46,790 nucleotides of DNA, taken from positions 1-46,790 of the forward strand of contig JBAXFD010000001.1 of assembly GCA_037140095.1 (NCBI GenBank). Reading direction: 5' to 3'. Position 1 is the first letter of the stretch. The number at the start of each line of letters is the position of its first letter. The translations under genes and the position numbers were made by a program. Origin of the DNA: Candidatus Saccharimonadota bacterium (GTDB taxonomy: Bacteria; Patescibacteriota; Saccharimonadia; Saccharimonadales; Saccharimonadaceae). Below, one piece after another: positions 14,860 to 46,790 of this stretch. A model generated the notes under the pieces. It ran no database searches. It saw only the letters and a list, made by a program, of their open reading frames with translations, and was not told where the DNA came from.

Positions 14860-16521
14860 ATGAAAAACAACAAACAATTAAGATACATAGCATACGTTCG
14901 CAAATCAGAAGAGCGTGAAGATAGGCAGTTGCTATCCCATGAAGCTCAAGAAACCGAAATTAAAGCTAATTTTACTCAATTAAAAATAGTTAAATGGATG
15001 GAAGCTGAAAGCAAAAGTGCCTTCAAGACAGGCAGGCCCATATTCGATGAAATGATGGCCATGATTGAACGTGGTGAGGCCGACGGCATTGTCGCCTGGC
15101 ATCCTAATCGTTTATCGAGAAACGAGATCGACAGTGCTAGGATAACCTACATGCTTCGTGATAAATTGAAAGATCTGCAATTTTGCTCGTATAATTTTGA
15201 TAACTCCGCGGAAGGCATAATGATGCTTCAAATGGTTATGAATCAATCACAATACGAATCATCAAAACAGGGCCGTGACGTTAAACGAGGCATGAAGCAA
15301 AAGGCTTCTAATGGCGAACGGCCCGGCCCAGTCCCACCGGGATATATAAAAGTGCCAGTTCTTAATAAATATGGTGATGTTGTCCTAAATAAAGACAAAG
15401 TTGTAACAGAGACCAAGAATGATCCAGAACGTTACGAATTAGTACAAAAGATGTGGTCAATGTTGCTAGGTGGCAGATATAACGCTGCTCAAATTCGTCG
15501 CATAGCAAATGATGAATGGCACTTTATTACCCGAAAGACAGAGAAAATCGGTGGTGTGCCATTGAGTTCAAGCATGATCTATAATTTGTTTAATAACCCA
15601 TTTTACGCAGGTTGGATGTATCATAATGGTGATTTGTATGAGGGTGGCCATAATAAGATGATAACCATGGAAGAATTTGACTACGCCCAAAAGCTACTGG
15701 GTAAAAAAGGTAAACCTCGAAAAGGTGTATATCAATACGCTTTTGCAGGCCTAATCAAATGTGGAGTGTGTGGGTGCTCAGTGGTAAGTAAAACTGTAAT
15801 GAAGTATGTAAAGGATGTAGACACTACAAAAACCTATACATATCATTACTGTACTCGCAAAAGTGACAAGCGACCCTGTAATCAAAGTAAATACACTACA
15901 CTTGATGTGATAGAAAAACAGATAGATGAAGAATTGGGTAAATATACAATCCTGCCCGAATTCCAGGAAATGGCATTAAAGATATTGCAACGCAATAACA
16001 AAACTGAGGTCAAGGACCGTAACCAGATTTACCAGAGTTGCCAGAAAAGACGGGATACGATACAAAATCAACTAGATAAACTTGTCGACATGCTGACACG
16101 GGGGCTTCTGGATGAAGATGAGTACAAAGAGCAACGTAATAAGTTGAAGGTTGAAAGATCTGAAGTAGACAATCAATTGCGTAGTACAGAAGCAAATAGC
16201 GATAAATGGATGGAACTGACTGAAAAGATATTCGATTTTGCCACATATGCTCGTATCCGCTTCCAGGATGGCGATATAATGACCAAAAGAGACATACTAA
16301 TGACATTGGGTGAGAACTTGACACTCTTAGATGGTAAATTGATTATTATACCTAACGAATGGCTAATTCCGATCGCAGAGCACTATCCTGAGCTTGAGAA
16401 ACGCTACCTCTGGGTTAGAACCAACCAAAAAGCCTCTCCTACGGTGAAAGAAGAGGCAATGGAATCAATATTCGAACTTTGGAGGGCCAGGTGGGACTTG
16501 AACCCACGACATTCTGCTTAA
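14860..16521 (+). CDS. large serine recombinase (integrase-type)
   Basis: N-terminal resolvase domain (YVRKSEE... catalytic Ser; HPNRLSRN), recombinase domain, zinc ribbon (CGVCGCSV...YHYCTRK) and coiled coil. AAGGAGG SD. The last 14 codons are antisense to tRNA-Lys. Confidence 0.9.
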   Translation: MKNNKQLRYIAYVRKSEEREDRQLLSHEAQETEIKANFTQLKIVKWMEAESKSAFKTGRPIFDEMMAMIERGEADGIVAWHPNRLSRNEIDSARITYMLRDKLKDLQFCSYNFDNSAEGIMMLQMVMNQSQYESSKQGRDVKRGMKQKASNGERPGPVPPGYIKVPVLNKYGDVVLNKDKVVTETKNDPERYELVQKMWSMLLGGRYNAAQIRRIANDEWHFITRKTEKIGGVPLSSSMIYNLFNNPFYAGWMYHNGDLYEGGHNKMITMEEFDYAQKLLGKKGKPRKGVYQYAFAGLIKCGVCGCSVVSKTVMKYVKDVDTTKTYTYHYCTRKSDKRPCNQSKYTTLDVIEKQIDEELGKYTILPEFQEMALKILQRNNKTEVKDRNQIYQSCQKRRDTIQNQLDKLVDMLTRGLLDEDEYKEQRNKLKVERSEVDNQLRSTEANSDKWMELTEKIFDFATYARIRFQDGDIMTKRDILMTLGENLTLLDGKLIIIPNEWLIPIAEHYPELEKRYLWVRTNQKASPTVKEEAMESIFELWRARWDLNPRHSA

Positions 16522-16556
16522 GAGGCAGACACTCTAACCAGCTGAGTTACTGGCCC
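16480..16556 (-). tRNA. tRNA-Lys (anticodon CTT), CCA encoded
   Basis: Reverse complement: GGGCCAG-TA-ACTC-AGCTGGTTA-GAGT-G-TCTGC-CTCTTAA-GCAGA-ATGTC-GTGGG-TTCAAGT-CCCAC-CTGGCCC-T-CCA. Confidence 0.85.
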
Positions 16557-20563: not shown

Positions 20564-21070
20564 CTAGTTGTACTTTGACGCGAGGCATTTGTGGATTGCC
20601 TGGCTGAATGATTTTTTGCGACTAATTAGCTCTTCTATATTTTCGCATTTATATTTATCAGAGTCGCATGTTTTGGAATACTCTCGTATAATAATCCCAA
20701 ATTCTTCACCATTCTCAATGCATTTTGACACATATGGCGGCAATGGTACAGGGTCACTGCTATCTGTTATTATATCTAGCCCGTCGTAGATTGTGGCTGT
20801 GCAGATTAAATTGTAAATATTATCTTTTTTTGTTAATCCACCCTCTAGCCCAATCGCTATCAATTCTTCTTTTTCATCGATGGTATTAAATGCATTTCTG
20901 GATCTATTTAGCGATCCGATAGCAGTTTCTTCTTTGGATGTTGGCTGTTCGGGTATGTCTGAACTGACACTTTGCCCTAATATCTCATCATATTTTATAT
21001 TCAAGCTATTTAGGCAATCAATTAATATTTTGAGCTTATCTTCACTTTTAGAGCCTAATACTATTCGCAT
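20564..21070 (-). CDS. DUF84/YjjX-like non-canonical purine NTP phosphatase
   Basis: MRIVLGSKSEDKL...SSDIPEQPTSKEETAIGSLNRSRNA...IAIGLEGG parallels E. coli YjjX (...[22 protein letters not shown]...AIEAG) as I recall it. Confidence 0.6.
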   Translation of the reverse strand: MRIVLGSKSEDKLKILIDCLNSLNIKYDEILGQSVSSDIPEQPTSKEETAIGSLNRSRNAFNTIDEKEELIAIGLEGGLTKKDNIYNLICTATIYDGLDIITDSSDPVPLPPYVSKCIENGEEFGIIIREYSKTCDSDKYKCENIEELISRKKSFSQAIHKCLASKYN

Positions 21071-22270
21071 TTATATTTTCCTCAGCTTATGGTTCATTCT
21101 GTCTTTTTTTGTCTTGAGATATCTATTGCTTGTAGGGTTAGCCGGTATCTCATGTTGTTTTGCGCCTTTGACTATTACCCCTAGTGATTTTAGTTCGGTA
21201 ATCTTGTCAGGGTTGTTAGTTAGTAATACTATGCTTTTTATCTTTAAATCTTCAATTATATCTTTCACGATCTCATAGTTTCTCATCTCACTGGGCATCC
21301 CTAATGCTCTATTTGCGTCAACAGTGTCTAGCCCCTCCGCCTGTAATTTATAGGCTTTTATTTTATTTATTATATTTATGCCTCTGCCTTCTTGGAAAAG
21401 GTACATAATTACGCCCTGGCCCTCTTTGGATATTATTTTAAAGGCCTTGTCTAATTGTTGCCCGCAATCGCAATGCTTGGAATGTAATATATCACCTGTG
21501 ATGCACGAAGAGTGAACTCTGACTAAAACATCATGTTTGTTTTCGACATCTCCTTTTACTAGAGCCAGGTGATAACTGTAATCAACTGATGATTGATAAG
21601 CTGTTATTTTAAAATTACCATATTCAGTTTCTAGCTCGGCTGAGGCGGCTTTCGTATATATTTTGTTATGGGATTTTTTCAAGTAAAGTCCACTAAGTAT
21701 AGACTGGACGACTTCTTGGATATTTGTATCGGCATCTATCGAGAAATCAATGGGACAGTGATTACTAAGGAATTTACTGACGTCATTTAATTCGGCTGTA
21801 AAATAATGATATTCTTCCTCTAGTTCTTTGGTGGAATATTTTTTATTGGTTTTAATTAATACAGAGTCATCAAAAGGGCATAGTTCATTTTCTTTGGAAT
21901 ATTCTCTGTGGCAGATAGGGCAATGGTGCCTGCGCTGTCTTCTGCTCAATGATTTGTCTAGGCTGCTATTAAATTTTACTACTGCTTCAAGCTCGAACCC
22001 ATTTTTGTTTATAAAGTCGAGCATTTTTTCGGCTTCTTGCAAGTGCATTGGATAGCCCTCAATAATTATTGGGTTTTGGTTATCTTTATGGGCCATTAGT
22101 TTTAATGATCGGAATAATTGTTCGGCGCTCTTTGCGTAGTCTGTTTTATGGGTTTGTTTTTTTAATGTTTCACCCCATGATATATACTGGAAGTCAAAGG
22201 CGGATTTTAATATTTGAGCGGCCTTTGTTTTGTTTGACCCTGGCGTTCCTAAAAATAATAATATTTTCAT
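21071..22270 (-). CDS. fusion protein: adenylate-kinase-like P-loop kinase (Zn lid) + GTP cyclohydrolase II
   Basis: N-terminus: GTPGSNKTK P-loop and CPICHREY...CPFDD lid. C-terminus: VRVHSSCITGDILHSKHCDCGQQL...QEGRGINIINKIKAYKLQAEGLDTVDAN...LLTNNP matches RibA, including the three Zn Cys. Confidence 0.8.
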   Translation of the reverse strand: MKILLFLGTPGSNKTKAAQILKSAFDFQYISWGETLKKQTHKTDYAKSAEQLFRSLKLMAHKDNQNPIIIEGYPMHLQEAEKMLDFINKNGFELEAVVKFNSSLDKSLSRRQRRHHCPICHREYSKENELCPFDDSVLIKTNKKYSTKELEEEYHYFTAELNDVSKFLSNHCPIDFSIDADTNIQEVVQSILSGLYLKKSHNKIYTKAASAELETEYGNFKITAYQSSVDYSYHLALVKGDVENKHDVLVRVHSSCITGDILHSKHCDCGQQLDKAFKIISKEGQGVIMYLFQEGRGINIINKIKAYKLQAEGLDTVDANRALGMPSEMRNYEIVKDIIEDLKIKSIVLLTNNPDKITELKSLGVIVKGAKQHEIPANPTSNRYLKTKKDRMNHKLRKI

Positions 22271-23361
22271 GCTAGTTGTTTTTTACTATTTAAACTTTCT
22301 GCTAGTATAATACCACTTAATTTAATCAAATCGCTATCACATATTTTATAATCTAATAGTATAGCAATGACTCCTTTTTTCATGTCTAGCGCTTTATCAA
22401 AATCTGACCAGTCTATGAATGGATGAGTTCTGTCCCAAAATGGTAGTGTAAAAAGTATGCCACTATCTGTTATTTTTTCGTGTAAATATGAAGAATGCTC
22501 GACTATTATAGGGAATATCTTTGAGGGTATTTGTTGTCTGACAATCTCATTAGCAATGACCAGGCTATCCCTGTCCAGGTATGATTTTAGCACGTTATAA
22601 ATATGCTTAAAATTTCTGACATTAACGTTAGTGTACCCATCAATATCCAAGTTATTTATGATTTCTCTTGTTGCTGGGGGTATCCCTAATAGATAGCCAC
22701 CCAGGTTTTTATATCTGGCTCCATGTATGTCTGAAGGGTCAATACCGGTATGTATACCTGACCCAGGTTTGTTTATGCCATTTTGGTATTTTTTAAAGTT
22801 ATTATTTTCAGTGATAACTAGTTTCCGGGGTGGATTTATTATTTTGTTTATTTTATATTTTTCTTTACAGCAAAGTATCGCACCATTTGGTACGGGTAGG
22901 ATTTTTCTTAGGCTAAATATAATAAGATCACCAATGTCTCCTACGTTTTTTGAGAATAATGCGTAGGCGGCGTCTTCTATCACGAAACCACCTTGGTTGT
23001 GAATTGTATCGGTTAATCTCATTAATTTAGACGATTTGTTAACAATGCCAAAGAAATGTGTTAAAAATAATATATCTTTTTCTAATATTTCTTTTGTATT
23101 TATGCCTATGCTTTCAAATGGCGACCCTATTCTTTGAATATTATAAAATTTAACATTAAAGCCTAGATTGATTGCTACTGCTACTTCGTCGCCACAACTA
23201 TAAGCAGGCAATAGGATTCTTTTGTGTCCCATTTCTTTTAGCAAAGAAAGGGCTGCGTATATTGCATTCCTCCCAAATAGGTATTCATGGCAATAAAAAC
23301 GACTGGCAAATGCCTTGCCCTTTAATTTTGTTATTAATTTATTTTTTGAAGTAAAAATCAT
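22267..23361 (-). CDS. DegT/DnrJ/EryC1-type PLP-dependent aminotransferase
   Basis: LLPAYSCGDEVAVAINLG... and VIEDAAYALFSK..GDIGDLIIFSLRKILP (Lys in the SxxK context). The track start 23439 would overlap the upstream gene by 100 nt; ATG 23361 is preferred. Confidence 0.65.
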   Translation of the reverse strand: MIFTSKNKLITKLKGKAFASRFYCHEYLFGRNAIYAALSLLKEMGHKRILLPAYSCGDEVAVAINLGFNVKFYNIQRIGSPFESIGINTKEILEKDILFLTHFFGIVNKSSKLMRLTDTIHNQGGFVIEDAAYALFSKNVGDIGDLIIFSLRKILPVPNGAILCCKEKYKINKIINPPRKLVITENNNFKKYQNGINKPGSGIHTGIDPSDIHGARYKNLGGYLLGIPPATREIINNLDIDGYTNVNVRNFKHIYNVLKSYLDRDSLVIANEIVRQQIPSKIFPIIVEHSSYLHEKITDSGILFTLPFWDRTHPFIDWSDFDKALDMKKGVIAILLDYKICDSDLIKLSGIILAESLNSKKQLA

Positions 23362-24280
23362 ATACCTTCCTCGATAATATGGGCTGGAACTGTAATTTAT
23401 GGATTCGAGTCCCGTCCTCGGTCCCCAACTCACCGTCATTTATAAAGTCTATTCCTTGGCTTGATGCAATCTCGAAAGTAGAGAAGTATAGGTAGTCACT
23501 TGACCCTTTTGCGCCATTAATGGTTTCGTCATTCAGCCCCTTTAATATTGTTGTGCATGATACTCCCTGAGAGATTCTATGATCTATCGACAATAGACCT
23601 ACGGGCATTTTTTTGTAATATAATAGGTGGTTGCTAATATTATTATTGTTCGCGATGGTGGTCTGTTTTAGATAGTTCAACTCTTTATTTTTTCGGTCTT
23701 TTTTGTATATGTGAAGTCGAGTACTGTTCCAATTATCTAGTACAAATTTAGCATCATCTAACATGTCCAAATTAAACTTTTTAAGTTCAAAATCTGGATT
23801 TTTAATTATTTTATTTTTTTTGTAACGAATCTTGGAGAATTTTTTACCTGGTAATTCTGATAATAATTTTGTTGAATAAAAAACTTCGTTTTCGGAACGG
23901 ATGTTTTTTACGAAATCTAATGTTGTTAATTCATTCGTATAATTTGTGGATTGATTCTCACTATAATATTTAATGCTGATTTTATTAAAACTTTTTTTCC
24001 AAGAATTGACTATTTGAGCTAATTCATCGAAGTTTAATATCAATGGGAAAGACATGATTAGCTCATTATCATCGTACGTTATTGGCAGTATACTGCCCAG
24101 TTTGGTCTTTGCTATCATTATATTTGACCCGTAGGATATGTAATAAAATAATAGATCAGGGCTCTGCTCAAAAACTGCCTGCTCTGTATCAATACATTTA
24201 ATGATTAAATCTATTGTTTCTTTGGATTTTTTATTTGAGAAAGATTCTATCAAATCGTTATTTATAGAGATTTTTTTCAT
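23339..24280 (-). CDS. DUF2156-like protein (MprF C-terminal / aminoacyl-tRNA-dependent transferase fold)
   Basis: ...LPGKKFSKIRYKKNKI... and C-terminal ...INDGELGTEDGTRIHKLQFQP fit the DUF2156 pattern (GKKFKKIRN...; N.G...GL..FK..F.P) from memory. The ATG at 24280 overlaps the upstream stop as ATGA. Confidence 0.5.
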   Translation of the reverse strand: MKKISINNDLIESFSNKKSKETIDLIIKCIDTEQAVFEQSPDLLFYYISYGSNIMIAKTKLGSILPITYDDNELIMSFPLILNFDELAQIVNSWKKSFNKISIKYYSENQSTNYTNELTTLDFVKNIRSENEVFYSTKLLSELPGKKFSKIRYKKNKIIKNPDFELKKFNLDMLDDAKFVLDNWNSTRLHIYKKDRKNKELNYLKQTTIANNNNISNHLLYYKKMPVGLLSIDHRISQGVSCTTILKGLNDETINGAKGSSDYLYFSTFEIASSQGIDFINDGELGTEDGTRIHKLQFQPILSRKVYDFYFKK

Positions 24281-25110
24281 GATATCTTTTTTGGAAATAA
24301 TAGATCCATATTTAGGTTGGGCATAAGTAGGTATCTTTCGTATGCGCTTTCGGACCAATATAAGTATGCTTCTTGGTACGACTCATTCAGTGCCTGCGCT
24401 ATGTATGGGTAATTTGTTGCGAGAGCCTCTGTGCGATCTCTAATTTTATCATCTTGCCAGTTTAATATATTCTTATAGAATATTTCGTTCCGACCTTGTA
24501 CTATTTGTTTTTTATCTTCCTCTATGTTGGCAATCGGTATATTTGAACCTCGTTCGCCAATCAAATTATCTAAATTGTTTAATGCACTAAGCTTTTTAAT
24601 TATGAATTGTTTGGGTGATTTATCTAACAAATCTCTATAGTTTTTATCTAAAGATGTGCGAAAATCAGTATCAGATAGTTCGTCAAGATTTTCTATTAAT
24701 AAGTCACTAAAGTAAATTGTAAGGTTTATTTTGCAGCCAGCCGAGCTAAACAGGTGATATAGCTTCGTGAGAGTGTTTATATTATTTTTTGTCGTGTTGC
24801 CGATGACATTGTTGTATCCAATTTGTCCGGCTCCGATCTTATAGGAAGGGCAAAAAACGGAGACTATTTGTATTTCGTTTTTTAATATAATGTCTGATAA
24901 TATTTTATCTAAAGTTCTTGACTGTGTAACCTTTGGCAGAAAACCGAGATTCATCAAATCCATGATGCTACCAAATGTTTTTTGGGAATCTATTAAATAT
25001 TGTGTTTCTTGGTCCGTGAACACGATCTTTTGTCTAGTTTCTTGATGACCGATGTCTAATTTATAGGCTAATGCTTGTGTTTTGGCTGGTATGGTATAAC
25101 AGTTCATCAT
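24277..25110 (-). CDS. hypothetical protein (no recognisable motif)
   Basis: 277-aa ORF that starts 9 nt after the CCA end of the tRNA-like element. No SD. Confidence 0.5.
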   Translation of the reverse strand: MMNCYTIPAKTQALAYKLDIGHQETRQKIVFTDQETQYLIDSQKTFGSIMDLMNLGFLPKVTQSRTLDKILSDIILKNEIQIVSVFCPSYKIGAGQIGYNNVIGNTTKNNINTLTKLYHLFSSAGCKINLTIYFSDLLIENLDELSDTDFRTSLDKNYRDLLDKSPKQFIIKKLSALNNLDNLIGERGSNIPIANIEEDKKQIVQGRNEIFYKNILNWQDDKIRDRTEALATNYPYIAQALNESYQEAYLYWSESAYERYLLMPNLNMDLLFPKKIS

Positions 25111-25119
25111 ATAAAAGGT

Positions 25120-25195
25120 TGGAGCCCAAGGACAGACTTTAACTGTCGACCTCCTGGAAACTTTCCAGTTGCTCTCTCTTCTGAGCTACTCGGGC
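25120..25195 (-). ncRNA. tRNA-like element: canonical 76-nt cloverleaf with non-canonical anticodon loop (non-decoding or pseudo-tRNA)
   Basis: Reverse complement: GCCCGAG-TA-GCTC-AGAAGAGA-GAGC-A-ACTGG-AAAGTTT-CCAGG-AGGTC-GACAG-TTAAAGT-CTGTC-CTTGGGC-T-CCA. U8, A14, A21, G53, T54, T55, A58 and C61 are present; U33 and R37 are absent. Confidence 0.6.
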
Positions 25196-25816
25196 ATGGT
25201 TTAATAAACTGTCTGTAATTATATCACAATATTCTTGGGGGGTTTTCAGTGACATCTCTATTGCCTTAAACCCTAATTTGATCAACTTAGATTTGACCAG
25301 GTTATTATTTAATTCATAGTCCTGATATCTTATTGCAAAGTCTTCGTAGCTATCGCCATCTCTTGTCTTTAAAAGTTCTTTGCAGTCTGGGCAGCAAGTT
25401 TGTTCGGTTGATTGGTAATCGCAATTAGGACAAACTTTTCTGTCTTTTATCCTATCCCATGCGTCTTCGTGGCTAATATTTATGTTAAACACAAATCCCG
25501 GCAATAGGGAATTATCCTCCATTATGTCTTCTAGAACTTCTACTTCTCTTTCAAATTTTGGGAAGCCGTCGACTAAGATTATTTTTTCAGAATTTATTAT
25601 TGGTTTTTCTATCAACTTTTTTATTATCGGTTTTGGGTATTCTTCTAAATTATTTATATAGCTTAGCAATTTTTTACCAAATTTAGTTTTTAGCTCAATT
25701 TCCTGTCTGGCTAATTTACCTACGGACAAGTATTCTATGTCTTTTGGTAGCAGATTTGCTGCCGTGGTTTTTCCTGCGCCAGGGGCTCCGTATAATATGT
25801 TGATTTCTGACATCAC
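25139..25816 (-). CDS. adenylate kinase family protein (Zn-lid type)
   Basis: GAPGAGKTT P-loop and lid CPNCDYQSTEQTCCPDC. The last 18 codons plus the stop are the 5' part of the tRNA-like element read in frame. Confidence 0.7.
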   Translation of the reverse strand: MMSEINILYGAPGAGKTTAANLLPKDIEYLSVGKLARQEIELKTKFGKKLLSYINNLEEYPKPIIKKLIEKPIINSEKIILVDGFPKFEREVEVLEDIMEDNSLLPGFVFNINISHEDAWDRIKDRKVCPNCDYQSTEQTCCPDCKELLKTRDGDSYEDFAIRYQDYELNNNLVKSKLIKLGFKAIEMSLKTPQEYCDIITDSLLNHARVAQKREQLESFQEVDS

Positions 25817-26331
25817 TATTCCTCTGTCTTGTCTGTATCGCCTAGGACTCTTTCTATAGCAATAATTTTAAAGACGTCCGTGTTACCGTTACCTATGGTG
25901 AATTCGTCTCCAATCGTTTTGTTAATCATAGCTATTGCTATAGGAGCATCATAGGATATTACGTCATTGTCATAATCAGATTCTAGTGCCCCCAATATAG
26001 TTAAAGTATCCACGTCACTAGCATCATTAATGTTTTGGTAAGTTACCTTACTGCCGATCCAAACGACTTCCTTTGACTTAGTAATGAACTCTTCAGAATT
26101 TTCTACTAATATGGCAGATGCACGCATACCTATAAGCCTTTGTCGTTCGGCTGGGAGCTCTTGGTGAAATCTTGCCCTTATTTCCTTTGCAATTATGTTC
26201 TCTGGTAAGTCAGGATCATCAGCACAAGCTTCGCCCAATTCGCGCCGCAAATCTTTAACCTTTTTATCATGATTGTCTATTGAGGTTTCGAGTTTTTCTA
26301 GCCCTTTTTTTGTAAAGTAAACGCCTTCCAT
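25816..26331 (-). CDS. GreA/GreB/Rnk-family transcription factor paralogue
   Basis: N-terminal coiled coil with DLPEN (compare GreA DLKENAEY) and a C-terminal domain ...ISYDAPIAIAMINKTIGDEF (compare GreA ISVNSPIARGLIGK). Confidence 0.7.
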   Translation of the reverse strand: MEGVYFTKKGLEKLETSIDNHDKKVKDLRRELGEACADDPDLPENIIAKEIRARFHQELPAERQRLIGMRASAILVENSEEFITKSKEVVWIGSKVTYQNINDASDVDTLTILGALESDYDNDVISYDAPIAIAMINKTIGDEFTIGNGNTDVFKIIAIERVLGDTDKTEE

Positions 26332-26392
26332 ATCGACCTTTCTGCACTAAAAGTTGTATATATTAATATACTATAATAAATAACGTTAAAAA

Positions 26393-27322
26393 TCAAGGAT
26401 AAATAGTTAATTGACTAATTGCAGAATCACCAGCGCTACGTTCTTGCATTTTTTTAGTGATCTCTGATAGATCATTTTCATCGCATAATATCCTTAAGTC
26501 TCTTTTTATTTCTTCGCTGTTTGGCGTATGGACGCCTTGCCCGGCATAAAACAGTAGGGGTATATTTACAGAGTTGTGGACCCCATTAGAGGCTATATCG
26601 CCGCTGACAAGATGCCTATAAGCACCTATGGGATCAAGCGCAATAGATGACTGTGGTGATATCGATGAACCATTGATATGCCCTGCAAGTGACTTGTATG
26701 ATATATCTCCCCTCAGCGTGTTTGCCGAATAGGTTCCTTGTTTACCTCTCAGTGTACCAGACAAAAAATCACTTATAGGTAAATTGTTATCAAGATTAGA
26801 GGATGATTGGTTGGTAACTATAATTAGCTCAGATTCTTTATTTATATAATTTAGTGTTCGGGTTGGGAAGTCATAATAAGAGTCGGGCATGGCTATAGCA
26901 TGGGGGTAGAGTGACATATATTGATTTAGGCCAACTCTAATTTTTTTGTTAAATATGACATCCAGACCATTTAGTTCTAGGAGTTTTTTGCAATCGTCGG
27001 CTAATGTTAAAATCTCTGGCCTGACCAGAACTAGACCTATTCGATTTATGTCTAGTGATTCAAGACTAGCTTCTGCAGATAGTAATGACTCTGCCATATC
27101 GTCTTTGACAGATAATAATTTTTTATATTGTCTATTACGTATCAGTGAAGATATAGCTACGCCATAGATAGTATCAGCTAATACCTCATTTGCCTCTATT
27201 GCCTTTTTTGTTGGCAGAGAGCCTTCTATAGATTGTTCAATAAATTTATCATCATATAGATCAAGCATTATATCCATATTGGATTCATGCATATTTTTTA
27301 GATTGTTAGGTATATTTTCCAC
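26393..27322 (-). CDS. hypothetical protein with divergent nucleoside-diphosphate-kinase-like region
   Basis: IGLVLVRPEIL..., TLRGDI..., ...SGDIASNGVHNS and GVHTPNSEE are reminiscent of NDK (RGDF...N.IHGSDS). The start is uncertain (GTG 27322 or ATG 27292). Confidence 0.4.
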   Translation of the reverse strand: MENIPNNLKNMHESNMDIMLDLYDDKFIEQSIEGSLPTKKAIEANEVLADTIYGVAISSLIRNRQYKKLLSVKDDMAESLLSAEASLESLDINRIGLVLVRPEILTLADDCKKLLELNGLDVIFNKKIRVGLNQYMSLYPHAIAMPDSYYDFPTRTLNYINKESELIIVTNQSSSNLDNNLPISDFLSGTLRGKQGTYSANTLRGDISYKSLAGHINGSSISPQSSIALDPIGAYRHLVSGDIASNGVHNSVNIPLLFYAGQGVHTPNSEEIKRDLRILCDENDLSEITKKMQERSAGDSAISQLTIYP

Positions 27323-27437
27323 AATTTAGTAATCTCTCTATCTTTTATATAGATTATATAATATAAACTACTTTTTAGCCACAGCAGTTATTATTCTTGA
27401 TGAGATTTGTTGCAGCAATTATGATTTTATTCGGAGT

Positions 27438-27911
27438 TTATTCTACGTTCTTGATTAACAGGCTATAGTTATTAAATGAGATATCACTATTAATTTTTTT
27501 GCCAATCAGTGCGGTTGCTATGGGTGATTTGCGGCTAACTACTAATGCGCCGTCAATTTTTTTACCAGTGTTTATGGACCAGTCACCAGCGATGAAATAA
27601 TCTGTGGGTTTCTGTGTATCGTTATTTATGACCTGGACTGTTGATCCAATTCCAACTGTATTCTTCTTTTGTTTGGGCATACTAATTGCACAATTATTTA
27701 ATATTCGTTTTAGCTTTTGGCGTTCAGCGGATAACAGCGATTGATGGTCACGGACTGCTTCAAATGGTGCATTGTCATGGTAGGTCTCAGACGTTTGGTT
27801 AAAGACTTCGTAAAACCTTGGCCCCAGATCTAATATTTCTTGGTCAATTTCAGCAATTCGCTGGCGAGCGGCAATTTTATCAGATTCCAGGATTAATAAA
27901 TCTTGTTTCAT
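27438..27911 (-). CDS. GreA/GreB/Rnk-family transcription factor paralogue
   Basis: 157 aa with ...YHDNAPFEAVRDHQSLLSAERQ (compare ENAEYHAAREQQ) and C-terminal ...VSRKSPIATALIGKKINSD. Confidence 0.7.
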   Translation of the reverse strand: MKQDLLILESDKIAARQRIAEIDQEILDLGPRFYEVFNQTSETYHDNAPFEAVRDHQSLLSAERQKLKRILNNCAISMPKQKKNTVGIGSTVQVINNDTQKPTDYFIAGDWSINTGKKIDGALVVSRKSPIATALIGKKINSDISFNNYSLLIKNVE

Positions 27912-27920
27912 ATAGAATAA

Positions 27921-28400
27921 TTAAATCACACTTTTAAGGCTATTAATATTTATATATTCAACCAAAAAGTTTAATTCTTCTGGTAGTTCGGCAGATATAA
28001 ATTCTTTTAAAATATAAATTTTCTTTTTGTTAAAATATTGGGCACTGGCGATTTCTTTCATTGCGCCCCAGGCGTAACCTATACAAATAAACATATCACA
28101 TTGGCGATTAAATTCATCGGCTTGACGGTCCCAATCGCCACAAGATATTACCGTGCCAATTTTAGTATTCAAATATTCTTCGTGTCCACTTTCAATAGTC
28201 GGTATTATCAGTGATATTTTTTTACCACCAAATTCTAGGTATTTATTGCCGAAATATTCCAAAAGCGAGTCTTTGTCTGGGGTTAGAATTATTTCATTGC
28301 CAGAATCGGCCAAAATCTGGGCGACAGCATTAATTAGATGTTTTCTTGCATCAACATCCTGCCCATAGATTTTATTTGGACCAATTATTCCTATTTTCAT
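27921..28400 (-). CDS. LOG/SLOG-like Rossmann-fold nucleotide-binding protein (TIGR00725-like)
   Basis: MKIGIIGPN..., ...FGGKKISLIIP... and ...CDMFICIGYAWGAMKEIA follow the LOG/DprA-like layout. The PGGxGTxxE motif is only loosely kept. Confidence 0.45.
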   Translation of the reverse strand: MKIGIIGPNKIYGQDVDARKHLINAVAQILADSGNEIILTPDKDSLLEYFGNKYLEFGGKKISLIIPTIESGHEEYLNTKIGTVISCGDWDRQADEFNRQCDMFICIGYAWGAMKEIASAQYFNKKKIYILKEFISAELPEELNFLVEYININSLKSVI

Positions 28401-28407
28401 ATCAGAC

Positions 28408-28779
28408 TTAAACTATATTTAGCGCTTCTTTGACCTGTTGGACAACTTGGCGGGGGGTTAGATTGGCTTTGACAATATAACTGTTGACACCCAGGTTTTT
28501 CAGGGATTTTGGAGATTCTTCGATGCCTACATTGGTCAAAATGATTACCGGTACGGTTTTGCCCCATGTGCTTTTGCGGATGATTGCTAATGCTTCATCG
28601 CCATTCATTACTGGCATTTGCAGGTCTAATAGGACGATATCGGGGTTGAAAGATTCTACCAAGGCGACGCCTTGTTGCCCGTCCATCGCTAGCTGAGTTT
28701 CGAAACCATCGGCTTCAAATTTCATGCGATACATTTGGCTAATTACTGGGTCGTCTTCGATAATTGCAATCTTTGTCAT
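28408..28779 (-). CDS. single-domain response regulator (CheY-like receiver)
   Basis: IAIIEDD..., DIVLLDLQMP (phospho-Asp) and ...SYIVKA (Lys). No output domain. A TATTAT box lies 6 nt upstream of the ATG. Confidence 0.85.
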   Translation of the reverse strand: MTKIAIIEDDPVISQMYRMKFEADGFETQLAMDGQQGVALVESFNPDIVLLDLQMPVMNGDEALAIIRKSTWGKTVPVIILTNVGIEESPKSLKNLGVNSYIVKANLTPRQVVQQVKEALNIV

Positions 28780-28950: not shown

Positions 28951-29289
28951 TTAGCAATTATATTTTTTCTTGATTTGTTCGAATCTATTTACTATATCTT
29001 CAAAATATTTTTCTAAAAATATATTATCCGGGGTATCTTTGTTGCAGCCTGGCGGAAGATAATCTTGGTCTGGTGTTAGTATCCTGCCTGGTGCACATGT
29101 TTCGAAGGATGCGGCTAGTTCTGCGAACTCTTCCAGTGCTGGCTCAATCAAGATTAGGTCATCATAATCATCACGCATCATAGTCGCTTCTATGATGCCA
29201 GATGCTATTTCGTCTTTTTTGATAGTATCGCTATTGATAAAACTATCGATTCTATCAGCAATTTCCTTTATTGAGTTATTTATATCCAT
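28951..29289 (-). CDS. hypothetical acidic protein
   Basis: 112-aa ORF. TGCTATAAT box lies 9 nt upstream of the ATG. Confidence 0.5.
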   Translation of the reverse strand: MDINNSIKEIADRIDSFINSDTIKKDEIASGIIEATMMRDDYDDLILIEPALEEFAELAASFETCAPGRILTPDQDYLPPGCNKDTPDNIFLEKYFEDIVNRFEQIKKKYNC

Positions 29290-29349: not shown

Positions 29350-30255
29350 TCACCGCGGCGGGTCATTTCTCCATTCGGATAGGATTTTCTCTCCATTTTC
29401 TCCAACTACGAGGTGGTAATGTTTGCCGGGGATTCCCTTATCTCTGACTATTATGTCAGTGACTATTATCCCTCTTGCATTGTTCCAGCCACTTTTTACT
29501 GTCGCATAGACTTCGGATTTTTTGTCGCCATATTGATAATCGCGACCTTTTTGAGTGTGAAATTCTTCAAGCCCAATTTTTTCATAATAGCCTGATCTCA
29601 TCGCTACTTCGCCTAGTCTGCGTTTGCGATCCTCGGTCTGTTTTTTCAACCAATTTAAATGGTCGTCAAACTCTTTCTTGGCTGCATTGAATTTTGCTTG
29701 TTTTTCTTCACATGCTGCTTTGACTGGTTTGTAGCGGGCGCTGACTTCACTGAACTCGGTTTTTAATCGAGCAGTTTTCTGCTTTGCTCTGTCAAAATTT
29801 GCCTTATTCCCGTTATTGTTGTAACGGTATTGCGAATCTTTCGATTGAGAAATATGATACCTTACATTCGCACTTGCAGACTCCATCTGTGATTTGTAGC
29901 CTTTACCCGTTTCGGACCAAGATTTTGCAGCAGCACCGTCGCGCCTGTCATGGGCGGCCGAAGCTTGTTGGTATGCTTCAACCATTTGACGGTAGTATCT
30001 GTCGCTCTCTTCCTTGTAGCTGTTAATCTTATCACTGATGTCTCGCATTACACGTTGGTGGAACTCCCAATCTGCTTGTTGTGCATCGTAAAGTTTTTTT
30101 TGTGCCTTAAAGGCCTCATCTAACTCATCATGCAATCTGGAACATTCCTTACCTAGCCGGTTTTTTTCTTCACGAATAGAGCATAACTCTTTGTAGACTC
30201 TATCTCGTGTATCGCCCAAGCTATTAAGCTTTGCATCATTTGACATTTCCTTCAC
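29350..30255 (-). CDS. coiled-coil hypothetical protein
   Basis: 301 aa, Lys/Glu/Arg/Gln-rich helical N-terminal 200 aa and a compact C-terminal domain. No catalytic motif recognised. Confidence 0.5.
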   Translation of the reverse strand: MKEMSNDAKLNSLGDTRDRVYKELCSIREEKNRLGKECSRLHDELDEAFKAQKKLYDAQQADWEFHQRVMRDISDKINSYKEESDRYYRQMVEAYQQASAAHDRRDGAAAKSWSETGKGYKSQMESASANVRYHISQSKDSQYRYNNNGNKANFDRAKQKTARLKTEFSEVSARYKPVKAACEEKQAKFNAAKKEFDDHLNWLKKQTEDRKRRLGEVAMRSGYYEKIGLEEFHTQKGRDYQYGDKKSEVYATVKSGWNNARGIIVTDIIVRDKGIPGKHYHLVVGENGEKILSEWRNDPPR

Positions 30256-30494: not shown

Positions 30495-31538
30495 ATGAAG
30501 GAATTTGATTGTAGTTGTAACCCAAAAACAGCATGGCTTACTCTGAATCGTCAATGTAATTTTCGTTGTCGTTGGTGTTATGGTGAGGATACTCATTATG
30601 ACCCGAAAGAGACAATGTCGCTTGCAATGGCCAAAGAGTTGGTTATGGTCGCGCATGAAATGGGAGTGGATCACTTTAATGTCATAGGCGGAGAACCTAC
30701 ATTATGGCCTGATCTTTTGGAATTTAATAGGTTTTGCAAAGACCTGGGTGTTACTAATTGTATTGTTACTAATGCAGCGTTGTTTGGTGATGACAGCTTT
30801 TGGGCAGAATATCAACAAAGTCCGTGCGATAACGTTTCTATATCCGTTAAAGCAGTTGGGCTTGAGCAATTTAAAGATGCTACCAAGGTTGGGATCTATG
30901 ATCAAACGATGAAGGGGATTGAAAGGGCAATTAATTTCTATCAAACTGGCGTCAGCACTGTATATAACAGTCTTGTCGGTATGGATGGATTAAAGCAAAT
31001 TGCTACTTTATGTCATGAACTTGGTGCAAAATCTTTCTTGGTTGACCTATGTTGTCCTGTAATTACTGACGAGGGCGTGTCTCTGGGATATTCTATTGAG
31101 CCGCATCAACTGGCGAATGACATCATGGAGATGCATCCATTTTTGGACGAATTGTACAATGGTAAAATCGAGATCGAGACCTACATCCCACTATGTTTAT
31201 TCCCTGAATCATTCATAGAAAAAATGCTGGGATCACGCCAAATAGCAACCATTTGTCATGTTTATGGTCGTAGTGGCCTTAATTTTGACACCAATGGTGA
31301 TGTTATGGCATGTAATCAATTACTGGGGAGCATTATAGCTCAAAAAGGGATAGACTATAATGACGGAACCAGTCTTTCAGAGCATCTTAATAGTGATGAA
31401 CTAAAGGAAGATTACAAGCAACTTCTACGCTATCCATCAGAAGAGTGTGATAAATGTCGTTGGAACGTATATTGTCGCGGGGGATGCCTAATCAACTGGA
31501 TGATATTTGATCCATCTATGTGCCACGCCATAAAGTGA
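30495..31538 (+). CDS. radical SAM/SPASM domain protein (peptide-modifying maturase candidate)
   Basis: CNFRCRWC (CxxxCxxC, residues 21-28). C-terminal SPASM: C-x13-G-x4-C then CDKCRWNVYCRGGC (Cx2Cx5Cx3C). AAGGAGGA SD. Confidence 0.85.
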   Translation: MKEFDCSCNPKTAWLTLNRQCNFRCRWCYGEDTHYDPKETMSLAMAKELVMVAHEMGVDHFNVIGGEPTLWPDLLEFNRFCKDLGVTNCIVTNAALFGDDSFWAEYQQSPCDNVSISVKAVGLEQFKDATKVGIYDQTMKGIERAINFYQTGVSTVYNSLVGMDGLKQIATLCHELGAKSFLVDLCCPVITDEGVSLGYSIEPHQLANDIMEMHPFLDELYNGKIEIETYIPLCLFPESFIEKMLGSRQIATICHVYGRSGLNFDTNGDVMACNQLLGSIIAQKGIDYNDGTSLSEHLNSDELKEDYKQLLRYPSEECDKCRWNVYCRGGCLINWMIFDPSMCHAIK

Positions 31539-34119: not shown

Positions 34120-35256
34120 ATGAATGAAAATAGCAAATATGCGAAACCGTTAGATCTCTCAATTAAAACACCTTATCTACTGATTAACTTGGATAAGATT
34201 TGTGAATCGTATAATAAAATATCAAAGTTTTTTGAAGATATTGAGATTTTTTATGCCATCAAGGCAAATCCAAATCCAAAAATTATGAAGACTGTTTTGG
34301 ATTGCGGGAGCGGATTTGAGATTTCTTCTGCTTTTGAAATGTTCAAAGCTCTAGAGGCTGGCGAGAAGCCTGAGAGGATATTGTTTAGCAACCCAATTAA
34401 AACATTTGATGATATAAAAGCGGCTTTTGATGCAGGGGTGCAGTATTTTGCCTTCGATAGCATTAGTGAAATCGATAAACTAGCCGAAGCCGCACCAAAC
34501 GCTAAAGTTTATGTTCGGCTATCAATACCGGTTCGAAAAAGCACGGTTGCGAGCGAGGGTAAGTTCGGGGTATCAATAGAGCAAGCACTAGACCTAATGG
34601 TCTATGCAAAGAGCAAGGGGCTCGTACCATACGGAGTGTCCTTCCATGTAGGTTCACAAATGCTAGACAACGACTCTTGGGGTTATGGTATACAGCATAG
34701 CGCCAAATTGTTCAACATGCTCAAGAAGAAAGGTATAAAATTAGAATTCTTGGATATAGGTGGTGGATTCCCTGTTTGTTACCAGGATGTTCAGCGTGAT
34801 AATTTGGACAAGATATCCAAGATAATTCTAAAATCAGTCAAAAAGTATTTGCCCAAAGGGACTCGGGTTGTGGCCGAGCCAGGCCGATATATTGTTGCCG
34901 AGTCTGGCACCATGGTTAGCTCGGTTATTGGTACCGCTGAGAGGTTTGGCAAGAAATGGTTGCATTTAGATGTTGGGGCGAATAACGGGATGATGGAAGC
35001 AGTCCAGACTTCAAACGCCTTGCTGTTCCCTGTCGGTGATTCATGTAGGTCTTCAGAAAAAGAGATATTTACACTAACTGGCCCTACCTGCGATAGTCAA
35101 GATACAATATTATTTGATGTGCCAGTTTCATCCAATATACAGATTGGTGATATTATATATTTCGAATTCGCTGGTTCATACACGACAGCCATGACAGAAA
35201 ACTTTAATGGGTTCCCAGACCCCGAGACTTTGATAGTAGATAATCGTAAAGGTTAA
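34120..35256 (+). CDS. PLP-dependent ornithine/lysine/DAP decarboxylase family (group IV, ODC-like)
   Basis: FYAIKANPNP (PLP Lys), HVGSQ, GGGFPV, EPGRYIV and GPTCDSQD. Confidence 0.85.
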   Translation: MNENSKYAKPLDLSIKTPYLLINLDKICESYNKISKFFEDIEIFYAIKANPNPKIMKTVLDCGSGFEISSAFEMFKALEAGEKPERILFSNPIKTFDDIKAAFDAGVQYFAFDSISEIDKLAEAAPNAKVYVRLSIPVRKSTVASEGKFGVSIEQALDLMVYAKSKGLVPYGVSFHVGSQMLDNDSWGYGIQHSAKLFNMLKKKGIKLEFLDIGGGFPVCYQDVQRDNLDKISKIILKSVKKYLPKGTRVVAEPGRYIVAESGTMVSSVIGTAERFGKKWLHLDVGANNGMMEAVQTSNALLFPVGDSCRSSEKEIFTLTGPTCDSQDTILFDVPVSSNIQIGDIIYFEFAGSYTTAMTENFNGFPDPETLIVDNRKG

Positions 35257-35258
35257 TT

Positions 35259-36488
35259 ATGGCTGACGGAAAATCTAAAGATAACAACGAAAAAAGTTTT
35301 ACGCCTATTGAAAAATTAGAATTGAATGCAGAACGTCCTGCAGTTGATTTTAATAGCTATGCCGAGATATGTAATTACAATAACGACAGTTCTAGGCGTC
35401 GTGGGATATTATCACCAGAAATGTATGCTGATATTATTCAGGATGATAGTACTGGTTTTATAGAATCAGATGGGGTGCAAATACCAGCGTTGATAGACAT
35501 TAAACATGGTCTAGCTATGGGTTACGATGCCGATAAATGTAAAAAATATGCCGAGGAAATATCTGATAATGTAAAAATTTTATCCGTTCCGTTCCACGAA
35601 TTGGATGAATCAGAAAAAGAACAGGTTACAAAATTATTGCAAGAAAATGGTAAATGCGCGATTTATTTTTGCGATCACGAGAATGATGAATCTATGGCTT
35701 TGGGCGAATATTTGAAAAAACATGATATAGAATTTTCTGAAAAACCATTGATTGATACGAGAGCCGCAGCAGGAGACGAGCAGGCAGCGTTGTCTCTATA
35801 CTCTTGTTTTGTTGAAAATACAAATGAGTATTCAGGAGACAAGCCTGTTGATTTACGCGATATAAAAGATTATTTTGATAAAAATATTGGTCCAGTTATT
35901 TCTGATAGTGGTAAAACGGCAACAACTCTAAATATGGGAGACAATATCTCTGATGATGAAGCTGATGAGATGTGGAAAATATTTAATTCTAGATTTGATT
36001 TTCTTGGGGAGAACCACCCATTATCAATGCAGGATACAAAGGATGATTTTTTATTACCGCTAAGGTCAAAAGATTCAATTATAGCAGCCACATATAATAT
36101 AGATGAAGATGGGTCGGCAAGACAGCTGGTTTGTTTTACTTATTTTATAAATAATGTAGACAGTTTATATTGGCTTAATAGTAAATATATAGAGCAAGAG
36201 TTTATAATAGATTCTGGTAAAAGGAGTGGTGTTATTAATATCTATACACCAGGTTTAGTTTCTTCTGCAGTTGGGGCTAGCTATGCGTCATTACCGATTG
36301 GTCTATTTACGACCGTATGTGATTCAGCGGGTATCAGTGACAATGTATTATATGAGAACACTAATTTTTCTAAGAGATATATACCTAGGATTGTTGATCG
36401 AGCAACAAGTAGAGCGTGCAAGGGGTCTCTTTATCACAAATCTAAAATCATTGATGAAGTTACATATCGTTTGTGGTCTATAAGCTAA
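35259..36488 (+). CDS. hypothetical protein
   Basis: 409-aa ORF starting 2 nt after the decarboxylase stop (same operon). No motif recognised. Confidence 0.5.
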   Translation: MADGKSKDNNEKSFTPIEKLELNAERPAVDFNSYAEICNYNNDSSRRRGILSPEMYADIIQDDSTGFIESDGVQIPALIDIKHGLAMGYDADKCKKYAEEISDNVKILSVPFHELDESEKEQVTKLLQENGKCAIYFCDHENDESMALGEYLKKHDIEFSEKPLIDTRAAAGDEQAALSLYSCFVENTNEYSGDKPVDLRDIKDYFDKNIGPVISDSGKTATTLNMGDNISDDEADEMWKIFNSRFDFLGENHPLSMQDTKDDFLLPLRSKDSIIAATYNIDEDGSARQLVCFTYFINNVDSLYWLNSKYIEQEFIIDSGKRSGVINIYTPGLVSSAVGASYASLPIGLFTTVCDSAGISDNVLYENTNFSKRYIPRIVDRATSRACKGSLYHKSKIIDEVTYRLWSIS

Positions 36489-46735: not shown

Positions 46736-46790
46736 GGTCTCATCGTCTAACGGTTAGGACACCAGGTTTTCATCCTGGCAACCCGGGTTC
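46736..46790 (+). tRNA. tRNA-Glu (anticodon TTC), 5' 55 nt only (truncated by window edge)
   Basis: GGTCTCA-TC-GTC-TAACGGTTA-GGAC-A-CCAGG-TTTTCAT-CCTGG-CAAC-CCGGG-TTC... The window ends in the T-loop. Confidence 0.7.

Follow-up and report, generated by a model that had tools for sequence, protein, structure and literature searches.

In fungal ErdS/ErgS, mycobacterial LysX, and bacterial MprF, a DUF2156 domain stands beside, or is fused to, an aminoacyl-tRNA synthetase (aaRS) domain, which implies the handover of an aminoacyl-tRNA, and the same domain is paired with a synthetase-like partner in an operon that we analyzed in a Candidatus Saccharimonadota bacterium. The operon occupies positions 20564-28779, with all of its open reading frames (ORFs) on the minus strand, of the first 46,790 nt of contig JBAXFD010000001.1 (assembly GCA_037140095.1); this whole stretch is referred to here as the window. 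DUF2156 is the aminoacyl-tRNA transferase module of MprF and ErdS, and in ErdS the AspRS domain channels Asp-tRNA to DUF2156 (PMC7334510). Unlike in these systems, the partner of DUF2156 in the operon is a new 277-aa protein family that lacks both synthetase motifs and an anticodon-binding domain, a private tRNA-like gene is present, there is neither a membrane domain nor a lipid context, and the module is tied to a GTP cyclohydrolase, nucleotide kinases, an NTPase, and a Gre factor.

Two further groups of enzymes resemble the new family in predicted structure. Cyclodipeptide synthases (CDPSs; AlbC, Rv2275, YvmC) share with it a small class-Ic aaRS-like fold without ATP motifs (Foldseek 5e-3 to 1e-1) but show no sequence similarity to it, possess a Ser/Tyr/Glu triad that it lacks, and are accompanied by cyclodipeptide tailoring enzymes rather than nucleotide enzymes. 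The best structural likeness is to the isonitrile synthases PvcA/IsnA (DIT1_PvcA), which condense an amino-acid nitrogen with the carbonyl carbon of ribulose 5-phosphate (PMC7949033). Unlike for these enzymes, Pfam DIT1_PvcA matched none of the 50 members of the new family that were searched, and no Fe(II)/2-oxoglutarate oxygenase is encoded in any of the loci.

A precedent for the RNA component is the staphylococcal non-proteinogenic tRNA-Gly, which feeds Fem peptidyl-transferases. In both cases, a tRNA would be kept for non-ribosomal aminoacyl transfer and altered away from translation; however, the RNA described here is located inside a biosynthetic operon, is of Thr type (Val type in a variant), has lost U33, purine 37, and G18G19, and has a shortened predicted anticodon loop in the Saccharibacteria clade. 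With the first step of riboflavin and toxoflavin synthesis (RibA/ToxB), the operon shares a bona fide GTP cyclohydrolase II (GCH II) with an intact active site, but here the enzyme is fused to a kinase instead of RibB. In toxoflavin synthesis, glycine is built onto the GCH II-derived diaminopyrimidine, and the puromycin pathway employs the Pur4 aminotransferase, the Pur7 Nudix hydrolase, and the Pur6 aminoacyl ligase. The likeness to the latter pathway is one of logic alone, namely, a DegT/StsC-type aminotransferase working on a nucleotide, an NTP hydrolase acting against an RNA-polymerase-toxic intermediate, and attachment of an amino acid; by contrast, the operon has no Pur10-type dehydrogenase, the amino acid would come from tRNA instead of through an ATP-dependent ligase, and the purine ring would be opened by GCH II.

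Thus, we rate the system as lying outside any described kind, although its building blocks are recognizable families and tRNA-dependent aminoacyl transfer is the nearest concept, because each of the closest systems fails at least one defining feature, no PADLOC defense model gave a significant match among the ten operon proteins submitted (the receiver being left out), and no matching paper was found: the full-text literature yielded nothing relevant on GTP cyclohydrolase (II) combined with the other components of the operon. An earlier note on this DNA, made from the sequence alone, could likewise name no pathway, and that statement stands against known pathways, defense systems, and publications alike.

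The conserved unit and its tRNA-like RNA

The earlier note described eleven tightly spaced minus-strand genes as a single operon. All eleven ORFs are found at the coordinates that it gave, and a separate gene caller run on the source contig recovered the same set, with later starts in 4 genes: the DegT-like (364 aa from 23361), DUF2156 (313 aa from 24280), ADK (224 aa from 25813), and NDK-like (299 aa from 27292) genes. The junctions are tight, with an ATGA overlap at 24277-24280 between the DUF2156 gene and that of the 277-aa protein, a 4-nt overlap at 22267-22270 between the kinase::GCH II and DegT-like genes, direct abutment of the NTPase and kinase::GCH II genes at 21070/21071, and a gap of 0-1 nt between Gre1 and ADK at 25816. 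A scan for promoters and terminators returned counts no higher than expected from shuffled sequence and carries no information on transcription units. The comparison across genomes retains the notion of one functional module but not of eleven genes: the conserved unit consists of seven proteins and a tRNA-like RNA, from Gre1 to the NTPase, whereas the receiver, SLOG, Gre2, and NDK-like genes are local additions. The components of the unit, in the order of transcription, are as follows.

25816-26331, minus strand: Gre1, operon-dedicated Gre-factor paralog, 171 aa (GreA_GreB C-terminal domain, 6.4e-16)
25139-25816, minus strand: ADK-family nucleoside monophosphate (NMP) kinase with a 4-Cys zinc lid (Pfam ADK, 8.5e-19)
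25120-25195, minus strand: tRNA-Thr-like RNA gene, apparently non-decoding, 76 nt (cloverleaf fold, spacer conservation, covariation)
24277-25110, minus strand: founding member of a new family, 277 aa (no Pfam/NCBIfam match; class-I aaRS-like predicted fold)
23339-24280, minus strand: DUF2156/LPG_synthase_C aminoacyl-tRNA transferase domain protein, 313 aa, soluble (PF09924, 9.6e-07)
22267-23361, minus strand: divergent DegT/DnrJ/EryC1-type pyridoxal phosphate (PLP)-dependent (sugar) aminotransferase, 364 aa (10-ortholog profile)
21071-22270, minus strand: fusion of an ADK-like domain (residues 1-~195) with GCH II (~200-399) (GTP_cyclohydro2, 5.8e-62; ADK, 1.2e-07)
20564-21070, minus strand: YjjX/DUF84-type non-canonical purine NTPase, 168 aa (PF01931, 2.7e-17)

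The earlier note proposed a synteny comparison, and the homologs indeed proved strictly collinear. The order ADK, tRNA-like gene, new family, DUF2156, DegT-like, kinase::GCH II, NTPase, with 25-45% identity, is complete in L003, L008, L010-L014, L016, L024, and L025 and partial in L004, L005, L006, and L015; it is thus kept in more than a dozen loci from several lineages of the Candidate Phyla Radiation (CPR), while the flanks differ. A scan of GTDB genomes with a 17-sequence alignment of the new family placed the operon in at least 7 loci from named genomes, a lower bound because a single peptide pattern was used: 2 in Saccharibacteria, 1 each in Paceibacterota, Amesbacteria, and the Patescibacteria group, 1 in an unclassified 'bacterium' bin, and 1 in a bin labelled Nanoarchaeota, on a contig of 4.5 kb that may have been mis-binned. 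A scan of genome contigs with a 3-sequence alignment found nothing, and a scan of metagenome contigs added one locus. The operon is a conserved accessory operon that, where the organism is named, almost always belongs to CPR/Patescibacteria. On one Patescibacteria contig (L008, 1-9168), it comes immediately after a polysaccharide locus of O-antigen type (Wzy_C, flippase, glycosyltransferases, WbqC, PIG-L, and a second DegT), a single case that may be due to chance.

The most informative feature of the operon is the element at 25120-25195, which the earlier note listed as a minor item. It comprises an acceptor stem of 7 bp, a D arm lacking G18G19, a variable anticodon hairpin with A-G-U at its center, a T arm whose loop has 7 nt, U73, and an encoded CCA. 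The reading frame of the ADK gene enters the element by 57 nt (~19 codons), and in the window its stop codon falls within the T loop. RNAfold predicts a cloverleaf with a 3′ UCCA (z = -2.46). Neither ARAGORN nor Rfam, at gathering and then at permissive E-value thresholds, makes a call at this position in the window; we accept the element nevertheless because of its folding and because of the spacer comparison. The same element is present in the spacer between the ADK and new-family genes in 12 of the 12 related loci compared, and in L024 and L025 as well; ARAGORN calls all 12 related copies, mostly as tRNA-Thr, with the anticodons UGU, AGU, GGU, and CGU.

In an alignment of 13 copies (the window and the 12 related loci; 21 pairs tested), 98.9% of the cells are paired and compensatory changes occur in nine pairs (41 cells). 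The covariation score of 0.469 compares with 0.213 for shuffles, none of 500 of which reached the observed value, and with at most 0.138 for slid controls. A covariance model, R1, built from the aligned copies scores the window copy at 93.6 bits and, at the same position, the copies of L024 and L025, both outside the training set, at 93.9 bits, and it gives 54-64 bits for the ordinary tRNA-Lys and tRNA-Arg of the window. The Rfam tRNA model detects 6 of the 12 related copies (52-57 bits) and misses the window copy and the other 6.

The pattern of conservation separates charging from decoding. G1-C72, C2-G71, G35, U36, and U73 are invariant or nearly so among the 13 copies, and the first four of these are identity elements of bacterial ThrRS. 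By contrast, any base can stand at position 34, 5 of the 13 copies lack U33, 8 have a pyrimidine at position 37, the G18G19 doublet is missing from the D loop (AGMAGAGA), and C56 is lost in the copies of the window, L003, L004, and L010. The anticodon loop has 9 nt in L012; within the Saccharibacteria clade, folding predicts a loop of as few as 3 nt (the window copy), and the remaining copies of the clade have, by eye, 5 nt. U33, purine 37, G18G19, C56, and a 7-nt loop are all retained by the ordinary tRNA-Lys and tRNA-Arg of the window. Since the ThrRS identity set is kept while decoding features are lost, the element looks chargeable by ThrRS yet unfit for decoding.

The new family and its enzymatic context

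Neither Pfam nor NCBIfam gave a match for the 277-aa protein, Pfam searches with 50 members returned only scattered chance matches, and PDB sequence searches with 3- and 50-sequence profiles gave no meaningful match. Its family is extremely rare: a word-indexed search of 5.8 billion proteins retrieved two homologs, and an exhaustive HMM search of 1.84 billion cluster representatives retrieved 89 representatives. In the alignment of the family, C87, P88, Y90, G104, E140, Y212, and R226 are invariant. An AlphaFold model (pLDDT 81.6, pTM 0.78) is closest, in Foldseek, to the isonitrile synthases PvcA/IsnA (E 7e-5, TM about 0.5), followed by TrpRS/TyrRS catalytic domains and CDPSs (E 1e-4 to 1e-1); weaker matches include pantothenate synthetase, and a library of viral structures yielded weak matches to giant-virus TrpRS/TyrRS and no phage relative. 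The model thus suggests, by a modest match, a Rossmann fold of the class-I aaRS/CDPS/isonitrile-synthase kind. The earlier note assigned a single aminoacyl-tRNA-dependent transferase fold to the operon; this holds for DUF2156, but two enzymes with aminoacyl-tRNA-related folds are now apparent, the 277-aa protein being synthetase-like in its predicted structure as well.

Elsewhere, members of the family are fused to DUF2156 (five representatives), ADK (three), or NDK (one). Among the collinear loci, the fusion with DUF2156 is present in L006, L008, L016, L024, and L025. Because ADK and NDK are NMP and nucleoside diphosphate (NDP) kinases, respectively, the fusions to them argue that the substrate or product of the family is a nucleotide. 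More distant members occur in the following architectures.

L017: GCH II, NDK::family (short contig)
L009, L018: tRNA-Val(UAC)-like gene, FolE2, CYTH, family::ADK, NDK, Nudix
L019-L021: APH-like kinase, FolE2, family, 668-aa methyltransferase, dTMP-kinase-like protein, U32, unknown 293-aa protein

The FolE2-type GTP cyclohydrolase of the L009/L018 architecture scores 243 bits, above the cut-off. Distant members always adjoin a GTP cyclohydrolase and nucleotide kinases or hydrolases; therefore, the invariant association is that of GTP cyclohydrolase, the new family, and a nucleotide kinase. Variants without DUF2156, of the L009/L018 type, keep the new family, the GTP cyclohydrolase, the kinases, and a tRNA-like gene, in this case tRNA-Val(UAC)-like with A73, so that an anticodon (Thr NGU, or Val UAC in the variant) and a discriminator of one synthetase are kept in 2 of the 4 architectures. 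In L018 (6095-7436), the variant lies next to a reverse transcriptase (RVT_1) and its RT-16 RNA (Rfam RF03019, 86 bits), as well as genes for an AAA_5 ATPase and a MazE-domain protein, a neighborhood resembling a defense island. L019-L021, whose U32-family protein is UbiU/TrhP-like, are located on a conjugative element with a TraC/TraG-like ATPase, NlpC/P60, and a transposase.

Most of the family assignments of the earlier note are upheld by profile searches, by an ortholog profile for the DegT-like protein, and by structure prediction for the NDK-like protein. The GCH II domain scores 222.5 bits with TIGR00505 (ribA), above the trusted cut-off of 205.85 bits. Alignment with E. coli RibA (2bz0, 7e-44) shows its active site to be intact, with the three zinc cysteines and the equivalents of Tyr105 and Arg128 kept and only D126 changed, to Glu; in some Streptomyces paralogs, loss of Tyr105 changes the product of GCH II. 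The fusion with the kinase domain is present in all complete related loci. As previously noted, there is no riboflavin gene besides this domain: RibD, RibB, RibH, and RibE were found neither among the window ORFs scanned nor in the related loci, and ToxA, ToxC, ToxD, and ToxE are likewise missing from both. A riboflavin or toxoflavin pathway was thus rejected, no further gene of either being present.

The DegT-like protein of the window alone has no Pfam match, and the ortholog in L008 matches PF01041 directly. A profile of 10 orthologs retrieves sugar aminotransferases from the PDB (7b0m, 1.3e-18; WecE, BtrR, QdtB, ArnB), and the PLP motifs Asp (IEDxAx) and Lys (FSLRK) are invariant. The stand-alone NMP kinase matches TIGR01351 (2e-26) below the trusted cut-off, so that it is better regarded as an ADK paralog than as a proven adk, and has collinear orthologs in all related loci. 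The NTPase, an inosine/xanthosine triphosphatase by TIGR00258 (4e-16), ends the operon in all complete loci.

The DUF2156 protein, assigned to a double-GNAT domain, scores 28.6 bits against a Pfam cut-off of 27.5 bits, and its orthologs reach 5.5e-09; it has no second domain, and its profile matches 2hqy weakly in the PDB (E 0.078). The tRNA-like gene lies one gene upstream in every CPR locus, an arrangement suggestive of the use of aminoacyl-tRNA by DUF2156. Independently of the operon, the window encodes a second DUF2156/LPG_synthase_C protein (36478-37473, minus strand; 7.3e-08) within its most AT-rich part (29.4% G+C), with an unknown gene of 409 aa (35259-36488) and a gene for an Orn/DAP/Arg decarboxylase (34120-35256) as neighbors; the segment 34120-37473 may be another tRNA-dependent aminoacylation module.

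In an all-against-all comparison of neighbors, the sole further recurrent gene is Gre-like: it immediately flanks the operon, on one side or the other and on either strand, in 8 related loci other than the window, as well as in L024 and L025. The Gre1-type profile aligns along its whole length, over residues 1-155, to E. coli GreA (1grj, 4e-21), N-terminal coiled coil and C-terminal globular domain included, and the orthologs keep the equivalents of D41/E44, the acidic tip residues required by GreA to cleave transcripts (DPDLPEN aligned with GDLKEN), so that Gre1 is predicted to be cleavage-competent. Close homologs of Gre1 number 5 among 5.8 billion proteins, and the one that was traced lies directly upstream of the same operon. 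The earlier note counted two Gre factors in the operon. Both indeed match GreA_GreB, but only Gre1, not Gre2, is an operon-dedicated paralog.

Proposed pathway and competing explanations

We favor a reading in which the operon turns GTP, along a tRNA-dependent route, into a threonyl-decorated, i.e., aminoacylated and aminated, nucleotide. Judged from the sequences, structural models, and gene context, this reading has, in our view, an even chance of being right, whereas any particular chemical step in the scheme that follows has far less. The kinase domains would hold the guanine nucleotide, or a later product, in the right phosphorylation state, and GCH II would open the imidazole ring of GTP to yield 2,5-diamino-6-ribosylamino-pyrimidinone 5′-phosphate. 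The DegT-like enzyme would then aminate the keto form of this product, an Amadori-type ketone, which we propose because it is the sole carbonyl available without an oxidoreductase. The private tRNA-like RNA would be charged by the housekeeping ThrRS, and the new-family enzyme, acting in a CDPS-like manner, and DUF2156 would move the threonyl, and possibly a second aminoacyl group, from tRNA to the intermediate. By analogy with CDPSs, the new family likely uses charged tRNA as an acyl donor; by analogy with isonitrile synthases, a condensation on the Amadori-type GTP-derived ketone could take place. The NMP kinase, and NDK where present, would raise the product to the di- or triphosphate, and the YjjX-type NTPase, or Nudix in the variant, would limit or detoxify it. 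Finally, Gre1 would either rescue the cellular multisubunit RNA polymerase from an analog that is misincorporated or terminates chains or mediate the effect of the analog; alternatively, it might be a DksA/ppGpp-like effector. Self-protection fits an operon-dedicated factor with predicted cleavage competence. The earlier note also envisaged a GTP-derived, aminated or aminoacylated nucleotide, and the comparative data, namely, the fusions of the new family, its pairing with GTP cyclohydrolases, and the tRNA-like gene, point in that direction.

A further, tentative proposal, which we consider possible but rather unlikely, is that in this module the new enzyme family aminoacylates the GTP cyclohydrolase product from the private, non-decoding tRNA and that the product, phosphorylated again to a non-canonical NTP, acts on RNA polymerase as a signal or as a weapon that terminates chains or is misincorporated, with a cleavage-competent Gre factor and the NTPase providing self-protection. 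Under this proposal, the relatives built on FolE2 would have spread on defense islands and conjugative elements of other bacteria.

Several observations weigh against a threonyl-decorated nucleotide. The HIGH/KMSKS motifs and the catalytic Ser/Tyr/Glu pattern of CDPSs are both absent from the new family, the structural match is modest, and its best matches are the isonitrile synthases IsnA/PvcA, which do not use tRNA. A tRNA-like gene was not detected in the L019-type variant or on the short L017 contig. The keto substrate of the DegT-like enzyme is conjecture, and a common substrate for the new family is not evident because the end products of GCH II and FolE2 differ. To our knowledge, all characterized DUF2156 enzymes acylate a lipid or sterol hydroxyl rather than a nucleotide. 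Furthermore, the link to Gre could be regulatory or, in some lineages, merely inherited synteny.

The rival that survives best, albeit as an unlikely one, is an ErdS/MprF-like system in which the new-family protein, as a minimal dedicated synthetase, charges the private RNA with an amino acid or related acid and DUF2156 transfers this to a lipid, sterol-like, or envelope acceptor, the GTP cyclohydrolase, kinase, and NTPase genes acting separately or in support. Fusions between the new family and DUF2156 mirror AspRS::DUF2156 (ErdS), LysRS::MprF (LysX) being a second example of such a fusion, and the predicted fold resembles class-Ic aaRS catalytic domains. In addition, known DUF2156 enzymes acylate lipids or sterols, such as glycerolipids and ergosterol (PMC7334510), and the L008 operon follows an O-antigen-type polysaccharide locus. 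However, a charging role sits poorly with a family that has neither HIGH/KMSKS nor an anticodon-binding domain, and the invariant G35 and U36 fit charging by ThrRS instead. Nor would such a system explain the variants free of DUF2156 and the fusions to ADK and NDK, and no membrane protein is conserved in the operon as far as Pfam and the comparison of neighbors across loci reveal.

An improbable alternative turns the RNA from donor into acceptor: a GTP-derived base or nucleotide would be attached to the tRNA-like RNA, yielding a modified regulatory or toxic RNA. A model for this is GluQRS, a truncated class-I synthetase that glutamylates queuosine on tRNA-Asp, and the new family, likewise truncated and class-I aaRS-like in its predicted structure, is of about the same size. 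This reading would account for two architectures in which the family is accompanied by both a GTP cyclohydrolase and a tRNA-like gene, and for an anticodon loop freed from decoding constraints. Against this, neither a transglycosylase (TGT/DpdA-like) nor any other enzyme for base insertion is encoded in any locus, no fixed modification site is evident because position 34 and the size of the loop vary freely, the NMP/NDP kinases, NTPase, and Nudix point to a free nucleotide pool, and the L019 variant has no detectable tRNA.

We also give little credence to nucleotidyl transfer, whereby the new family, as a HUP-class enzyme, would join an NMP to the GTP cyclohydrolase product to form a dinucleotide-type cofactor or signal, with the kinases supplying the NTP and the tRNA-like RNA acting as a regulatory or processing element. 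The class-I aaRS fold does belong to the HUP nucleotidyltransferase superclass, pantothenate synthetase is among the weaker structural matches, and the ADK and NDK fusions would suit an NTP-consuming enzyme; moreover, MurB, encoded in the window, needs a flavin, which CPR bacteria are generally believed not to synthesize. However, the top structural matches are not nucleotidyltransferases, the invariant residues include no H-x-G-H or ISxxxxR-type motifs, and neither the ThrRS/ValRS identity elements of the RNA nor DUF2156 would have a role.

Conversion of a tRNA-bound amino acid by a kinase and a PLP enzyme, as in PSTK/SepSecS, is not favored, given that the kinase is homologous to NMP kinases and that sugar aminotransferases are the nearest match of the PLP enzyme. 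Finally, that housekeeping genes (adk, ndk, an ITPase, a stray ribA, a normal tRNA-Thr, and greA) have come together by chance is highly improbable: every domain does come from a common housekeeping family and ARAGORN calls most copies of the RNA tRNA-Thr, but the gene order is kept across distant CPR classes with differing flanks, genes are fused, the new family is extremely rare and Gre1 a rare paralog, the tRNA combines a pyrimidine at 37 with loss of U33 and G18G19 and an unconstrained position 34, none of the loci carries another riboflavin gene, and the G+C content of the cluster is below that of its flanks.

Genomic surroundings and implications

The local additions to the conserved unit, all upstream of Gre1 in the window, are the following.

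26393-27322, minus strand: NDK-fold protein with a ~80-aa helical N-terminal extension, local accessory (AlphaFold and Foldseek)
27438-27911, minus strand: Gre2, second Gre-like factor, window-specific (GreA_GreB, 9.9e-12; TIGR01462, 7e-17)
27921-28400, minus strand: SLOG cluster-4 (LOG-like) protein, window-specific (PF18306, 1.5e-06)
28408-28779, minus strand: stand-alone response-regulator receiver domain, window-specific (PF00072, 9.2e-21)

Gre2 keeps one acidic residue in its tip motif and was not found beside the operon in other loci, where the receiver and SLOG genes are absent too. The NDK-like protein has no match in Pfam and other sequence searches, so that its membership among NDKs holds at the level of the fold only; its AlphaFold model (pLDDT 91.3) retrieves exclusively NDKs among the top 50 Foldseek matches (TM up to 0.77 of the target). 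R91, T192, R194, H255, and E261 are invariant in its family, and we map them by motif, as an assumption, to K12, T94, R105, H118, and E129. The homologs, about 70, are all unannotated, with one named Saccharibacteria; they form a wider Saccharibacteria family that is also found in an unrelated context without the operon, and in L004 a canonical NDK fragment occupies the position of the NDK-like gene.

The cluster had been judged by eye to be more AT-rich than the flanking folD and phosphoketolase genes, and this proves correct, with 35.4% G+C versus 45.8% for that flank and 40.1% for the remaining window. Upstream of the receiver gene, on the same strand, are genes for an unknown 112-aa protein (28951-29289) and a coiled-coil DUF1771 protein of 301 aa (29350-30255), separated by a strong terminator-like hairpin (29339-29314); neither gene is conserved beside the operon in other loci. 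The same is true of two radical-SAM genes. One of them (40020-41384) matches Pfam SPASM; the other (30495-31538), divergently transcribed from the upstream side of the cluster, has Radical_SAM and Fer4_12 matches and a Cys-rich C-terminal tail that appears SPASM-like by eye. A viperin-like role for the latter was rejected because it is encoded on the opposite strand and does not recur beside the operon in other loci.

Farther away, the window contains a Type III restriction-modification pair (6925-10966; ResIII helicase-nuclease, 765 aa, and N6/N4 DNA methylase, 583 aa) and a tRNA gene cut by the window end (46736-46790; Rfam tRNA 32.5 bits, 3′-truncated). A gene encoding a large serine recombinase (14860-16521) shares sequence with the 3′ portion of tRNA-Lys(CTT) (16480-16556), and two operon-carrying assemblies differ at this site, one (L002) having the recombinase segment, as in the window, and the other (L001) an APH-kinase gene, which suggests an integrative element at tRNA-Lys.

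The ultrasmall CPR/Patescibacteria are usually portrayed as metabolically minimal, with no capacity for making nucleotides or cofactors. If the proposed tRNA-dependent route is correct, bacteria thought to be nearly devoid of biosynthetic capacity would possess a tRNA-dependent nucleotide-analog system, and an eight-component pathway consuming GTP and tRNA would represent specialized nucleotide chemistry in minimal cells, which may serve the epibiotic lifestyle, competition, or phage defense. The operon brings to light a new enzyme family with a predicted tRNA-synthetase-like fold that is always coupled to GTP cyclohydrolases. We know of no Gre factor genetically dedicated to a small-molecule pathway, and Gre1 would offer a handle on how secondary-channel factors cope with nucleotide analogs. 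The tRNA-like RNA would define a new class of non-decoding tRNA that keeps its synthetase identity and sheds its ribosomal features, and nucleotides would join lipids, peptides, and cell-wall precursors as acceptors of tRNA-dependent aminoacyl transfer.

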